From the sequence record PQ356294.1: DNA of 64,000 nucleotides; one strand, written 5' to 3'. Position numbers and translations under genes: made by a program. The stretch comes from Escherichia phage Ec_YwIITB1. Positions 4,196 to 42,913 of the stretch are shown here, in pieces. Each line of letters begins with the position of its first letter. The stretch's first letter is position 1. The notes beneath the pieces were generated by a model. It was not told the origin of the DNA and did no database searches. It saw nothing but the letters and a program-made list of their open reading frames with translations.

Positions 4196-5878
4196 TTAAA
4201 CCATTACAGTAAATCGACCAACTTTCTTCATTTGAAGATGCTGACCATATTCTTGTGGGTCATGATCTTTATGTGAAATTATAAAAACATTAGTATTTTT
4301 TAAACTATCTAAAATAGTTGAAATAGCTTTTACACCTTCAACATCAGTTGCTGAATCAAAAACTTCATCGAGAATTAGTGTGTTTATTTTAACACCTGAA
4401 ACTTTTTCAGCAATATCACGCCAAGTAAATAAAAGAGCAATATCAATTCGTGCTTTTTCACCTTCACTAAATGAAGCATAACTAAAATCTTCACGACCAC
4501 GGGATTTAATTGTCTCATTAAATTCTTCATCTAATGTAAACACATAATCCGCTTCCATTATTTTAAGATAATGGTTAATCTGCTTATTAAATAATGGAAT
4601 GTACTTTTTAATAATAGCACCTTTAATACCAGAATCTTTGAGCATATCAGTCAAAATTCCTCTGTGGTATTTTTCCATTACCAAATTAGTTTTTGTCTTA
4701 ACAATTTTATCAAGTTCTTCTTGAAGCAGTGCTATTTCATCAGCATGGTCAATAAACTCAGATGATGCTTTTTCTATAGCTGCTTTAACTTTTTTAGCTT
4801 TATCTACAGTCGTGATTAGAGATTGCTTTTTATTGCGAATATCATTTGCCAACGTCTGCTGGGTTTTAATATTATCTCGGTATTCATCAACAAGAACTTT
4901 TAAATTATCACGATGTGTTGAAAGCTGTTCAAACGAATGTGTGCATTCAGAAACTTTATCTTTAATTTTAGAAACAACTTTATCACCGGAACTTAATTGT
5001 GACAAACAGGTTGGACATAATCCACCTTCGTGATACATATTAATGACTTTATTATACGAGTCAATTTTTGATTTAATTAAAAATGCTTCTTGACCGATTT
5101 TATTAAATGCATCAGTCGGGTCTTCATCCAAAACAATATTAACTAATCTTTCATTAGCTTCTTCTATTTCCGATTTTAGCGTTCTGGCTTCTTTTGCCAA
5201 ATCATCATACATATTCTGTAGACGAGTGAGGTTATCACCAGTTAATTTTTTCTGGCGTTCAACGTTATCATTATATATTTTAATTTGCTGGATAATACTA
5301 TCTTTTTTAACATCAAGCACTTGGTTTTGTGAATTTAATTCACGTATTAGTGCTTTATTGAGCTTATCCATTTCAGCTAATGTTCCTACTTCGAGCAGGT
5401 CTTCGACAAGCTTTCTTCTTGCAGGAGTGGATAGGCCCATAAAAGGGGTATATCCAGCCGTGCCGAGTACGACGATCTGTTTGAAACTGGCGTATGACAT
5501 TCCGATAAGCTGTTCAAATTCTGCTTGGAAATCTTTACTGCTGGCAGATTCATTAAGACGTGTACCGTTAACGGTGATTTCGAAAACATTCGGTTTTTGT
5601 CCTCTTTTGATGTAGTACTTTTTTTCATCATATTCCATCCACAGTTCAACTAAAAGTTCTTTCTTATTTGTGCTGTTTATTAATTGACCTTTCTTTACAT
5701 CACGAAATGGCTTGCCAAAAAGCCCAAATGTGATGGCTTCTAACATAGTAGACTTACCACCGCCATTTCGCCCGGTAATAAGAGTTTTTTGAACCTTATC
5801 TAGTTGAATGTCAATAGGATTTCCACCTACTGACATTATATTTTGATACCTAACTCGGTTTAATTTAAAATTCTTCAC
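4196..5878 (-). CDS. 46: recombination endonuclease subunit gp46 (Rad50/SbcC-like ATPase)
   Basis: 560 aa; Walker A GRNGGGKST; central coiled coil. Confidence 0.9.
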   Translation of the reverse strand: MKNFKLNRVRYQNIMSVGGNPIDIQLDKVQKTLITGRNGGGKSTMLEAITFGLFGKPFRDVKKGQLINSTNKKELLVELWMEYDEKKYYIKRGQKPNVFEITVNGTRLNESASSKDFQAEFEQLIGMSYASFKQIVVLGTAGYTPFMGLSTPARRKLVEDLLEVGTLAEMDKLNKALIRELNSQNQVLDVKKDSIIQQIKIYNDNVERQKKLTGDNLTRLQNMYDDLAKEARTLKSEIEEANERLVNIVLDEDPTDAFNKIGQEAFLIKSKIDSYNKVINMYHEGGLCPTCLSQLSSGDKVVSKIKDKVSECTHSFEQLSTHRDNLKVLVDEYRDNIKTQQTLANDIRNKKQSLITTVDKAKKVKAAIEKASSEFIDHADEIALLQEELDKIVKTKTNLVMEKYHRGILTDMLKDSGIKGAIIKKYIPLFNKQINHYLKIMEADYVFTLDEEFNETIKSRGREDFSYASFSEGEKARIDIALLFTWRDIAEKVSGVKINTLILDEVFDSATDVEGVKAISTILDSLKNTNVFIISHKDHDPQEYGQHLQMKKVGRFTVMV

Positions 5879-40359: not shown

Positions 40360-40923
40360 TTATTTATCTAGTTTAGTTATTATAGCTTCTGCAGCAGCTT
40401 TTAGCTTAGATGCGGTGTTAATACGATTTTTAATTTCAGTATACGCGTCGCCAAGAACATCAAGGCTATCAGAATAAACACTTACACTATTGCGTTCGCT
40501 ATTTGAAATAGAACCTTTAGTTTTGCGGTCAAAATCGGTGTACACGTCTTGAAGATCGCGGGCTGCCTTCTTTGCATCATCCAATGCATCAAGAGCTTTA
40601 TTCAAAGCATTAACGTATTTTTTAGTGTCGAACATATTCTTAGAAATTTTAACAGGTGCGCGTTCAGGAGTAGCTAACACAGATTTAGGAACCTGAGCAC
40701 CAGATGCCAATTTCTTGGAAATTTTGAAAAATGCTTTATTGAATTTATTTTCTTGACTCATTGTAAAAGAACTATTATCGATGTTGTACATTTCAATAGC
40801 TTTAGCTTTCCACTTAAGAAAATCGCCGCGGTCTTTTGGGTCCAAGTGGAAGAATACTTTAGTAAGATCTGCTTCAGATGGTAATTTTGCTGCTTCGGTT
40901 AAAAATTCGGCATAGGTTTTCAT
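40360..40923 (-). CDS. internal-protein-like capsid-targeted protein
   Basis: N-terminus MKTYAEFLTE-AA; 187 aa. Confidence 0.6.
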   Translation of the reverse strand: MKTYAEFLTEAAKLPSEADLTKVFFHLDPKDRGDFLKWKAKAIEMYNIDNSSFTMSQENKFNKAFFKISKKLASGAQVPKSVLATPERAPVKISKNMFDTKKYVNALNKALDALDDAKKAARDLQDVYTDFDRKTKGSISNSERNSVSVYSDSLDVLGDAYTEIKNRINTASKLKAAAEAIITKLDK

Positions 40924-41011: not shown

Positions 41012-41041
41012 CTAAAAAGCCCCAACCTTTTGGTCAGGGCT
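41012..41041 (-). terminator. intrinsic terminator, repeat copy 1
   Basis: agcccc..aacc-tttt-ggt..ggggct hairpin plus U run. Confidence 0.55.
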
Positions 41042-41048
41042 AAGAATG

Positions 41049-41522
41049 TTATTTGATTTGTTTAGCAGACCAAATGCGGTCTTTAATAATTTTTTGGATG
41101 TCTTCAACATACTCAAGAGAGTGAACATGTGGATTATCTTTGAAACTATAAGCACGGGCTAGCTTTTGGCCTTCGGTTTTGATTACTAAAAGCTCTTTAA
41201 GGATAGCTTCATATTTAGAGATAATTCCTTTAACGATATTTTTTTCTTGTGCAGCTTTAGGATCTGCTTTAGGAGCAGGTTTACCCGAAGCCTTTGCAAA
41301 AGCAGCGCCAGTAGCAACTAAACTTTTCCAGGCCATACTAACTGCATTTCCAGTAAATCCTTCTGCTTTCATGTCGCGAGCAAATTGGAATCGTGATTCG
41401 TCAGAAGCATCTTTATAGGAATATTTACCCGCTGCAATGGCTGCTTTTGCGACAGCTTGAATTTCGGTGCTAGATGCTTCATTTAACACCGCTTCATTTA
41501 AAAATTGAGCATATGATTTCAT
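41049..41522 (-). CDS. internal-protein-like capsid-targeted protein
   Basis: N-terminus MKSYAQFLNE-AV; 157 aa; Ala/Lys-rich. Confidence 0.6.
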   Translation of the reverse strand: MKSYAQFLNEAVLNEASSTEIQAVAKAAIAAGKYSYKDASDESRFQFARDMKAEGFTGNAVSMAWKSLVATGAAFAKASGKPAPKADPKAAQEKNIVKGIISKYEAILKELLVIKTEGQKLARAYSFKDNPHVHSLEYVEDIQKIIKDRIWSAKQIK

Positions 41523-41562
41523 CTTATTTCCTGTTTTAATTCGTGGATTTAATATACTACTG

Positions 41563-41570
41563 TATTTATA
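41563..41570 (-). promoter_or_regulatory. late promoter TATAAATA
   Basis: Plus-strand tatttata about 40 nt upstream of the 41522 start. Confidence 0.55.
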
Positions 41571-41600
41571 CTAAAAAGCCCCAACCTTTCGGTCGGGGCT
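41571..41600 (-). terminator. intrinsic terminator, repeat copy 2 (10 bp stem, GAAA loop, U5)
   Basis: Minus strand AGCCCCGACC-GAAA-GGUUGGGGCU then UUUUU; terminates tRNA-cluster transcripts. Confidence 0.7.
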
Positions 41601-41652
41601 AAGCCTTGCGGCAACCTTGTCGGGGTTCCACCTGCTAAGGCAAGTGTTTGTA

Positions 41653-41743
41653 CGAAACGCCGGGATTTGAACCCGGTTATTAAGCAGTTGACGCTACTCA
41701 ATATTTTTAAAAGGCCATATCTCAACCATATCCGAACGTTCCG
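41653..41743 (-). ncRNA. tRNA-like structured RNA (candidate stable-RNA equivalent)
   Basis: 7 bp acceptor-like stem CGGAACG/CGUUUCG and a perfect T-arm CCGGG-UUCAAAU-CCCGG, but no canonical anticodon arm. Confidence 0.3.
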
Positions 41744-41916
41744 TCAAAAACGCTACTCGGCTTACAGCAAAAATATTTCCTCGAATCGATAATTCTGTGC
41801 GCCGTTTCAGCTGTGATGTAAGGGGACATTAACAGATCGTAAAGATTTGTTAATGCCAGTCCTTACCCAGGGAACATCAGTCCGACGACTTACCGGTAGC
41901 GACCCGGTTTCTTGTT

Positions 41917-41992
41917 TGGTCGAGGCAGTAGGGATCGAACCTACGACCTAGGACTTAGAAGGTCCTTGCTCTTCCTTCTGAGCTATGCCTCG
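41917..41992 (-). tRNA. tRNA-Arg (anticodon UCU)
   Basis: Manual cloverleaf: acceptor CGAGGCA/UGCCUCG, loop CUUCUAA, T-loop UUCGAUC, CCA encoded. Confidence 0.8.
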
Positions 41993-42047
41993 AACCCATG
42001 ACTACGAGAATCACAATCTCGAGTTCTACCAACTGAACTACGGCCAC
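41993..42047 (-). pseudogene. 3'-truncated tRNA-His-like gene (GUG anticodon arm intact) fused to the tRNA-Arg 5' end
   Basis: Acceptor 5' strand, D-arm and CGAGA-UUGUGAU-UCUCG anticodon arm present; T-arm 3' half and acceptor 3' strand absent. Confidence 0.5.
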
Positions 42048-42141
42048 ATTAATACCTACTCCAACAATCAAGATGTCTTCACACGAAATTAAGAGAAGAG
42101 TGATCAGTTCAACCCCTATAATCGCGTCAAGTAGATATTAA

Positions 42142-42157
42142 TGTGACAGTTGTCACA
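42142..42157. repeat. 16 bp near-perfect palindrome tgtgacagttgtcaca
   Basis: Inverted repeat between the tRNA-His remnant and tRNA-Asn. Confidence 0.5.
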
Positions 42158-42161
42158 AATT

Positions 42162-42236
42162 TGGCGGACGTGATAGGATTCGAACCTATAACCAATCGCT
42201 TAACAGGCGATCGCTCTGCCATTGAGCTACACATCC
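42162..42236 (-). tRNA. tRNA-Asn (anticodon GUU)
   Basis: Manual cloverleaf: acceptor GGAUGUG/CACGUCC, loop CUGUUAA, CCA encoded. Confidence 0.75.
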
Positions 42237-42240
42237 AAAT

Positions 42241-42327
42241 TGGTGGGGAGTGGTGGAGTCGAACCACCCGAGTCGCAATGACAATGGATTTACAGTCCAC
42301 ACCGCTACCTCTACGGGATAACTCCCC
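42241..42327 (-). tRNA. tRNA-Tyr (anticodon GUA), class II with long variable arm
   Basis: Manual cloverleaf: acceptor GGGGAGU/ACUCCCC, loop CUGUAAA, T-arm GGUGG-UUCGACU-CCACC, CCA encoded. Confidence 0.7.
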
Positions 42328-42340
42328 TTAATTCTTAATT

Positions 42341-42415
42341 TGGTGGCCCTGGGTGGAATTGAACCACCATCTGGCGATTATGAGTCGCTTGCTTGAACCT
42401 TCCAGCTACAGGGCC
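42341..42415 (-). tRNA. tRNA-Ile/Met type (anticodon CAU)
   Basis: Manual cloverleaf: acceptor GGCCCUG/CAGGGCC, loop CUCAUAA, CCA encoded. Confidence 0.75.
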
Positions 42416-42416
42416 T

Positions 42417-42492
42417 TGGTGCTGATTGACGGAATTGAACCGCCGACCTTCCCATTACAAGTGAGTTGCTCTACCTACTGAGCTAAATCAGC
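42417..42492 (-). tRNA. tRNA-Thr (anticodon UGU)
   Basis: Manual cloverleaf, loop CUUGUAA, CCA encoded. Confidence 0.8.
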
Positions 42493-42497
42493 AAAAC

Positions 42498-42587
42498 TGG
42501 CGGAGGCGATAGGATTTGAACCTATGAGTCGCCGGAGCGACTGCCGGTTTTCAAGACCGGTGCATTAAACCACTCTGCCACGCCTCC
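42498..42587 (-). tRNA. tRNA-Ser (anticodon UGA), long variable arm
   Basis: Manual cloverleaf: acceptor GGAGGCG/CGCCUCC, loop CUUGAAA, CCA encoded. Confidence 0.8.
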
Positions 42588-42589
42588 AG

Positions 42590-42663
42590 TCTCCATACAA
42601 GGATTTGAACCTTGGACCTCCTGATCCCAAATCAGGCGCTCTACCAAACTGAGCTACACGGAG
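42590..42663 (-). tRNA. tRNA-Pro (anticodon UGG)
   Basis: Manual cloverleaf, loop UUUGGGA; CCA not encoded. Confidence 0.8.
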
Positions 42664-42673
42664 TAAATTAAAT

Positions 42674-42747
<74 letters not shown>

Positions 42748-42752
42748 AAATT

Positions 42753-42839
42753 TGGTGCGAGAAGTGGGACTCGAACCCACAAGGAAATCATTCCGCAGCA
42801 TTTTAAGTGCTGTGCCTTTACCAATTTGACCATTCTCGC
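42753..42839 (-). tRNA. tRNA-Leu (anticodon UAA), long variable arm
   Basis: Manual cloverleaf: acceptor GCGAGAA/UUCUCGC, loop CUUAAAA, CCA encoded. Confidence 0.8.
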
Positions 42840-42840
42840 G

Positions 42841-42913
42841 CTGGGAATAAAGGACTCGAACCTTTGCATCCTGGAATCAAAATCCAGTGCCTTACCAACT
42901 TGGCTAATTCCCA
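42841..42913 (-). tRNA. tRNA-Gln (anticodon UUG)
   Basis: Manual cloverleaf: acceptor UGGGAAU/AUUCCCA, loop UUUUGAU; CCA not encoded. Confidence 0.8.

Follow-up and report, generated by a model that had tools for sequence, protein, structure and literature searches.

Conserved, structured rnaD and rnaC RNAs, the latter a tRNA look-alike, follow the tRNA genes of a T4-type phage

The two elements described here are already known from phage T4, whose species 2 (rnaD, T4s002) and species 1 (rnaC, T4s001) RNAs have been known since the 1970s and have appeared as annotated features of T4 records from 1985 on. The T4 reference record NC_000866 places rnaD (species 2 RNA, 119 nt) and rnaC (species 1 RNA, 139 nt) straight after tRNA-Arg, and the 1985 record X03016 gives species 2 as 4615..4734 and species 1 as 4741..4877. 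Read against the sequence, species 2 in X03016 begins one base past the tRNA-Arg CCA and terminates ...GCGCACCA; species 1 has the C of CGAUUCG as its first base and the U next after CGUUUCG as its last. The T4 cluster transcript has been modeled as one transcript of ∼1.75 kb ending after species I (PMC2330249). RNAC was confirmed in T4 by Northern blotting at ∼140 nt, and both RNAs were classed as late (PMC9697503). Their roles were stated to be unknown in 2010 (PMC3014915), 2022 (PMC9697503), and 2025 (PMC12685909), and no functional study of rnaC or rnaD was found in the literature searched, which covered 2010–2025.

We compared with these RNAs an interval in a 64,000-nt stretch (the window) of the genome of Escherichia phage Ec_YwIITB1 (PQ356294.1), which is of T4 type (Tequatrovirus) and carries its tRNA cluster on the minus strand. 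ARAGORN located 11 tRNA genes on that strand at 41917-42913, 10 of them confirmed by Rfam, and the cluster, with Met, Tyr, Asn, and Arg genes and no segB, is of the T2L/RB3 type described in PMC2330249. The interval, 41601-41916, is bounded by tRNA-Arg (41992..41917) and the intrinsic terminator on the strand that is transcribed (minus), and is read here from 41916 downwards, downstream of tRNA-Arg. A near-identical copy of the terminator is present at 41018-41041, after the next ORF; the two downstream ORFs, 41049-41522 (157 aa) and 40360-40923 (187 aa), are paralogues belonging to the same PHROG, phrog_2280, which has no assigned function.

A BLAST search of the interval against 50,697 phage records returned 804 matching records at 90–99% identity, nearly all of which belong to T4-type phages infecting Escherichia, Shigella, Yersinia, or Salmonella; rnaD is matched in 734 phage records. 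GiZh, RB3, RB5, and other records label the same stretch rnaC or rnaD, and GiZh carries rnaC and the terminator at the matching place. When aligned with T4, the window is identical at 103/118 positions in rnaD (87%), 135/139 in rnaC (97%), and 75/79 in the trailer and terminator, whereas tRNA-Arg itself matches at only 40/75 (53%). A covariance-model search, proposed in an earlier note on this DNA and performed with a family-built model, gave a single match in the window (41788..41649, 151.7 bits), and nhmmer also matches rnaC. Because of the alignment with the T4 reference, the annotated relatives, and the covariance-model match, we conclude that the interval very probably encodes orthologues of the two small stable RNAs of T4, as the earlier note had suggested they might be, and in the same place after tRNA-Arg. 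The window copy of rnaC, on the same strand as the tRNAs of the cluster, differs from that of T4 by four bases, none of which makes it different in kind (the T-loop reads UUCAAAU rather than UUCGAAU in T4), and it shares with the T4 copy its location between rnaD and the tRNA-operon terminator and, by homology, its ends. That the sequence ahead of the cluster terminator is structured, also stated in the earlier note, agrees with the folding results: every piece folds better than its dinucleotide-shuffled counterparts, z lying between about -2.8 and -4.8 (rnaD, -2.96; rnaC, -3.27; trailer, -4.47; full 349 nt, -4.77). The features of the interval are collected in Table 1. As a separate observation, the change from tRNA-Arg(UCU) at 41917-41992 to the much more T4-like rnaD and rnaC beside it forms a sharp mosaic boundary.

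Table 1. Positions of the rnaD, rnaC, and operon-end features in the window
Feature	Position	Strand	Basis or remark
rnaD (species 2 RNA) orthologue	41795..41915	-	Alignment with NC_000866 and X03016; 103/118
rnaD helix P1, A-CCGG / CCGG-U, invariant 7-nt loop GUCGCUA	41892..41908	-	100% paired in 20 copies
rnaD helix P2, long-range, encloses P3	41801..41889 (5' strand 41889..41878, 3' strand 41813..41801)	-	All bases invariant
rnaD helix P3, hairpin	41814..41869	-	Sequence replaced between lineages, pairing kept; 9 pairs change on both sides
Spacer rnaD-rnaC, 6 nt, GAAUUA-U	41789..41794	-	U precedes C1 of rnaC
rnaC (species 1 RNA) orthologue, 137 encoded nt, C1 to discriminator U	41652..41788	-	135/139 against T4; ends as X03016 4741..4877
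rnaC acceptor stem, 5' strand CGAUUCG	41782..41788	-	Pairs with 41659..41653
rnaC hairpin H1, 70 nt	41712..41781	-	Base AGG/CCU stacks on acceptor stem; apical loop with UUGACG
rnaC loop 1 (H1), UUGACG	41742..41747	-	Invariant except UUGGCG in Marfavirus-type copies
rnaC hairpin H2, 10 bp + 6-nt loop, anticodon-arm position	41678..41703	-	7/10 pairs change on both sides
rnaC loop 2 (H2), CGUCAA	41688..41693	-	Complementary to loop 1
rnaC T-arm, CCGGG-UUCAAAU-CCCGG	41660..41676	-	Middle pair varies G-C, U-A, A-U
rnaC acceptor stem, 3' strand CGUUUCG	41653..41659	-	Followed by discriminator U (41652) and ACA (41651..41649)
Trailer hairpin, CACUUGC-CUUA-GCAGGUG	41629..41646	-	Fold; kept beside rnaD in phages without rnaC
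Intrinsic terminator of tRNA operon, 10-bp stem then UUUUU	41577..41600	-	Annotated terminator in X03016 and GiZh

The interval had been described as free of ORFs, which is literally incorrect, as ORFs of 58, 41, 35, and 34 aa overlap it, and correct in substance, as their frames are not conserved and Pfam gave no match for these small ORFs. In divergent copies the frames contain stop codons and are shifted by length differences not divisible by three, and the TTG start of the 58-aa ORF is TCG in most close relatives; the interval is non-coding. Small ORFs over rnaC and rnaD at 41549-41725 and 41722-41829 of the window are matched by two PHROG families without assigned function, phrog_28391 (7.6e-35) and phrog_24262 (8.6e-26), and many GenBank records annotate hypothetical proteins here, so these matches and annotations speak for the 58-aa and 35-aa ORFs encoding small proteins. 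We give that reading next to no credence, in view of the broken frames, the prevailing TCG, the empty Pfam search, and substitutions that follow an RNA-helix pattern. The two PHROG families and the many GenBank 'hypothetical protein' features are probably gene-calling artefacts over RNA genes. Correct annotation matters, as most deposited genomes are blank here or carry spurious 'hypothetical proteins', on which the two PHROG families were apparently built.

The secondary structure of rnaC was examined with copies drawn from nine genera: Tequatrovirus, Mosigvirus, Gaprivervirus, Kanagawavirus, Winklervirus, Moonvirus, Karamvirus, Marfavirus, and Gelderlandvirus. We tested a four-helix model with an added loop-loop pairing on a MAFFT alignment of 19 distinct copies that had not been fitted to structure. 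Paired combinations filled 94.9% of the cells, and 23 pairs change on both sides, compared with 13.1 ± 2.1 in shuffled alignments (0/500 reach 23) and 3–8 in slid registers. After covariance-model realignment of 28 distinct copies, 95.0% of the cells are paired and 29/52 pairs change on both sides, compared with 19 ± 2 in shuffles (0/500 reach 29) and 5–9 in slid registers. The window sequence fits every helix of the family model. As predicted from this comparison, rnaC is a four-way junction of cloverleaf topology composed of an acceptor stem, the hairpins H1 and H2, and a T-arm.

The earlier note had outlined a tRNA-like element at 41653..41743 whose 7-bp acceptor-like stem paired 41743..41737 with 41659..41653. 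This stem shows no compensatory change, falls below its own shuffles, and has one pair broken in 11/19 copies. The 5' partner was rejected, as covariation puts the 5' end of the RNA, 41788..41782, opposite 41659..41653, so that the element measures 137 nt (41788..41652) rather than 91 nt. The 3' acceptor strand and the T-arm of the original outline both stand, the T-arm being confirmed at 41676..41660 and directly adjoined by the 3' strand. Within the acceptor stem of the 28 copies, pair 3 is A-U in 12 (the T4 group) and G-C in 16 (elsewhere), the other four Watson-Crick pairs are invariant, and so are two U-U oppositions. Changes on both sides are found at 19/26 pairs of H1, the stem sequence of which is wholly replaced, with pairing kept, in the Karamvirus, Kanagawavirus, Marfavirus, and Gelderlandvirus copies. 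The T-arm loop has a tRNA T-loop sequence in most copies. Because the loop does not match tRNA (UGCAUGC or UGCAUC) in the ZX14 group and Virsaitis27, four copies in all, the canonical T-loop is not strictly required. The same four copies (three in the ZX14 group, one in Virsaitis27) also carry CG in place of GG immediately ahead of the CCU strand of H1; this co-change, which amounts to one or two events, may reflect a contact akin to the D-loop/T-loop pair of tRNA. A resemblance of CUUUUAA in the H1-H2 linker to the anticodon loop of tRNA-Lys was dropped, since the motif is unconserved in other genera.

The apical loops of H1 and H2 are complementary over six bases. UUGACG and CGUCAA are present in 25/28 copies while the underlying stems vary freely, and the three Marfavirus-type copies (3/28) have UUGGCG with CGCCAA, that is, a double change from A-U to G-C, so that the six pairs are 100% paired over the 28 copies. 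A complementary 6-mer is expected about twice by chance within 137 nt. The compensatory change, which comes from one lineage and is probably one event, supports a six-base-pair contact between the two loops, although the loop invariance could alternatively reflect binding to something else. The sequence is compatible with pairing within or between molecules, and we consider an intramolecular contact the simplest arrangement; it would require a sharp bend, because H1 has about three times the length of H2.

Complementary loops with covariation are also a property of the phi29 packaging RNA (pRNA), likewise a phage RNA of ∼120–170 nt, and rnaC might by analogy pair 'hand in hand' between molecules to form dimers or rings. 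The compensatory loop change would fit such an assembly, as would the geometric demands that the much longer H1 places on an intramolecular contact and the late accumulation of the RNA in T4 (PMC9697503). However, rnaC has no sequence or model similarity to pRNA, the pRNA family model of Rfam has no match in the interval, and pRNA has no counterpart to the tRNA-like half of rnaC. T4 DNA packaging in vitro is not known to need RNA, and no packaging role is known for the T4 RNAs; the viability of tRNA-region deletions points the same way. We therefore regard intermolecular rings as highly unlikely.

The conserved single-stranded loops might instead mark rnaC and rnaD as regulatory small RNAs that control host or phage mRNAs by pairing with them. 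UUGACG, CGUCAA, and the rnaD loop GUCGCUA are invariant while stems vary, and 'small regulatory RNAs' is the label used, without evidence, in PMC9697503. The rnaC loops, however, are complementary to one another and changed together in the Marfavirus-type copies, which fits mutual pairing and not a shared outside target; because the two loops covary, pairing with outside RNAs is disfavoured. In addition, no target is known, and according to a 2010 review no T4 RNA had yet been characterised as a trans-acting regulator (PMC3014915). This alternative is thus unlikely, and we retain the mutual pairing of the two rnaC loops as the preferred arrangement.

The predicted architecture of rnaC can be set against that of canonical tRNA. 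Both have a four-helix junction, an acceptor stem that continues without a gap into a 5-bp T-stem with a UUCRAAU loop, and a single discriminator base; moreover, CCA is encoded in one rnaC lineage, and rnaC can occupy tRNA arrays with tRNA-like spacers. The array placement is found in Winklervirus, Moonvirus, Karamvirus, and Gelderlandvirus, where tRNAs lie 5–12 nt off on each side. (The record of Citrobacter phage Moon, NC_027331, puts its tRNA genes on the strand opposite to that called by ARAGORN.) The differences are considerable: rnaC is 137 nt long, has a 70-nt hairpin in place of the D-arm, and has 8 nt between H1 and H2, and its 'anticodon' loop has 6 nt rather than 7 and is complementary to the H1 loop. 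Measured against the 7-bp acceptor and 5-bp T-stem of tRNA, the T-arm and the contiguity are present, and the acceptor consists of five Watson-Crick pairs and two U-U oppositions. With discriminator U and a first pair C1-G72, no known aminoacylation identity set was recognised. ARAGORN and the Rfam tRNA (RF00005) and tmRNA models made no call within 41601-41916, whether the gathering threshold or an E-value limit of 10 was applied. Under the same two settings, no Rfam family covers the interval, the weak hits to isrK, anti-hemB, and others being chance matches far below threshold.

Two other tRNA-like RNAs were considered. The tRNA-like domain of tmRNA resembles rnaC in that it has an acceptor stem and a T-arm but lacks an anticodon for decoding, and in that a large insertion separates the 5' acceptor strand from the T-arm. 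In contrast to tmRNA, rnaC lacks the G3-U70 pair (pair 3 is A-U or G-C), a tag reading frame, and the series of pseudoknots, and neither ARAGORN nor Rfam calls a tmRNA. The YrlA RNAs, Y-RNA-like tRNA mimics of bacteria and phages that work with the Rsr (Ro) protein, are likewise stable non-coding RNAs with a tRNA-like module and no anticodon; the interval has no Rfam match, and we take this likeness as a lead only.

Comparison of the ends bears on how rnaC would be completed. In Marfavirus-type copies the acceptor 3' strand is followed at once by an encoded U-CCA, where the other copies have U-ACA. In 1975 Paddock and Abelson reportedly gave species 1 a length of 140 nt, which together with the 137-nt feature of the 1985 record suggests that CCA is added after trimming. 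The tRNA-Pro (42589-42663) and tRNA-Gln (42840-42913) genes of the window have no encoded CCA, as in T4, and the operon therefore already relies on CCA addition by the host. For T4 Pro-Ser, the CCA is not encoded and is added by the host (PMC11143913).

The tRNA-type T-arm, acceptor stem, and cloverleaf topology of rnaC, its occurrence in tRNA arrays, and the presence of a real truncated tRNA-His nearby (42048..41976) could be taken to mean that the interval holds decaying tRNA genes with no function of their own, an option that the earlier note had raised as 'tRNA remnants'. This does not fit the pattern of conservation. The 97% identity of rnaC to the T4 copy far exceeds the 53% of the adjacent functional tRNA-Arg, 29 pairs have been kept by compensatory change across about nine genera, rnaC is retained where tRNAs are absent, and a stable RNA accumulates in T4 (PMC9697503). 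Furthermore, no parent tRNA of rnaC was identifiable: identity over the acceptor and T-arm reaches ∼50% at best and is due to the universal T-loop. We accordingly give pseudo-tRNAs almost no credence as an account of the interval. Taken together, rnaD and rnaC of this phage are real, conserved, and structured, and rnaC is a tRNA look-alike.

Outside the interval there is a true tRNA remnant. The tRNA-His called by ARAGORN at 42048..41976 (minus strand; no Rfam call) overlaps tRNA-Arg by 17 nt and matches intact phage tRNA-His up to the T-loop (GGGTTCGA), after which its sequence becomes that of the tRNA-Arg 5' end; it is thus a truncated tRNA-His fused at the T-loop. A T-loop fusion point is the kind of site cut by SegB-type endonucleases (PMC2330249). 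Between tRNA-Asn and this remnant is a 113-nt spacer (42049-42161) with the inverted repeat TTGTGACAACTGTCACA and no tRNA or Rfam hit.

The 24 distinct copies of rnaD show a different organization, in which invariant blocks on the 5' side (∼45 nt) and the 3' side (UCACAGCNGAAACGGCGCAC, ∼20 nt) surround a hairpin that is replaced between lineages. The window contains both the 5' block AGAARCCGGGUCGCUACCGGYAAGUCGUCGGACUGA and the 3' block UCACAGCNGAAACGGCGCAC. The pair at the base of P1 varies (A-U, G-U, and G-C). Two registers of P2 fit equally well and neither has covariation; they are indistinguishable because all P2 bases are invariant. The window copy resembles that of T4 in its 87% identity, its identical invariant 5' and 3' blocks, its P1 and P3 architecture, and its 5' end, one spacer base past the tRNA-Arg CCA. 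It differs in the variable hairpin and at the 3' end, which was set by homology to T4 ...GCGCACCA: T4 encodes a terminal CCA there, whereas the window reads GCGCACAG, and CCA is therefore not fully encoded. The final triplet is CAG in the window, CCA in T4, and CCA, CCG, CAG, or CCU across the family, and from this range the encoded CCA of rnaD appears to be a T4 detail, not a family requirement. We consider rnaD a separate module, the two invariant blocks of which, on either side of a hairpin that is free to vary, probably form a binding surface. When a T4-like phage was adapted to a semi-permissive host, three lines acquired an identical SNP in the rnaD region (PMC12685909).

Some short complementarities between rnaD and rnaC were also seen. 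UGAAACG in the rnaD 3' block (41809-41803) is complementary to the acceptor 3' strand CGUUUCG of rnaC (41659-41653), a pairing that appears in the full-length fold. Only genomes that also have rnaD carry the U-containing variant of that acceptor strand. These matches of 6–7 nt (UGAAACG/CGUUUCG and CGCUAC/GUAGCG) were not built on, about four of the kind being expected by chance.

Distribution among relatives separates the two RNAs. The rnaC module is cleanly absent from JS10 (L025, 560-690) and from five IMG/VR contigs (L032, L038, L039, L042, and L044); in the JS10 group, rnaD is joined straight to the CACUUGCC trailer, and the missing module consists of UUAU, then 137 nt, then ACAAA. Conversely, rnaC occurs without rnaD in copies from five genera (Moonvirus, Karamvirus, Kanagawavirus, Marfavirus, and Gelderlandvirus) and is kept with no tRNA nearby in VR7, PEi20, and MY02. 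Because each RNA occurs without the other and rnaC persists away from tRNAs, rnaC and rnaD are independent units, each kept for its own sake. A metagenome scan using a pattern anchored on both rnaC ends was too loose, with only one (L065) of its 120 loci being real, and the viral-contig matches L011 and L019 were chance hits in coding DNA.

This modularity bears on whether the structures act only in cis, in the processing, stability, or termination of the tRNA operon transcript, with the stable RNAs as by-products. The operon-terminal location (3' end), immediately ahead of the terminator, would suit such a role, as would the ability of the rnaD 3' end to pair with the rnaC acceptor 3' strand in the full-length fold and the retention of the trailer hairpin even without rnaC. 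In other genera, however, rnaC lies in the middle of a tRNA array or far from any tRNA, and rnaD follows an ORF, not a tRNA, in NBEco003, Sfk20, and P479. The ∼65 invariant bases of rnaD and the invariant junction and loops of rnaC also exceed what processing signals need. A purely cis-acting role is decidedly unlikely on these grounds, and independent RNAs remain the preferred reading.

From sequence and from T4, the following course can be proposed. Both rnaD and rnaC would be cut from the long tRNA-operon transcript by host tRNA-processing enzymes, with RNase P cutting before C1 of rnaC and the rnaC 3' end being trimmed to the discriminator before CCA is added. The two rnaC loops would then pair, most simply within one molecule, and lock away the anticodon-equivalent loop. 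Mature rnaC may occupy or divert a host or phage protein that recognises the acceptor end, acceptor stem, or T-arm of tRNA, in a role that would be accessory, host-dependent, and late in infection. T4 deletions of the whole tRNA region, including both RNAs, grow on laboratory strains, which fits an accessory role and is silent on which.

Judging from its anatomy, rnaC possibly imitates the upper half of a tRNA, does no decoding, and engages a tRNA-binding protein, a reading that we offer tentatively. A more specific version, which we hold to be doubtful, is that rnaC is a tRNA-derived cloverleaf rebuilt as a rigid non-decoding decoy, which late in infection would absorb or misdirect a host acceptor-end factor such as a tRNA-targeting defence toxin. 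The anticodon-equivalent loop would be locked by the six-base-pair kissing contact with the extended D-arm, leaving the acceptor stem, T-arm, and CCA exposed, and rnaD would be a second, independent module of the accessory toolkit.

As a genome feature the pair is ordinary, since any T4-type genome is expected to carry rnaC and rnaD. On the long-standing question of what the species 1 and 2 RNAs do, the comparative model gives experimental handles: the true acceptor stem, the cloverleaf-like junction, the covarying loop-loop contact, the CCA-type end, and modular gain and loss across genera. If the decoy reading were true, it would provide a function for two RNAs that have been without one for fifty years.
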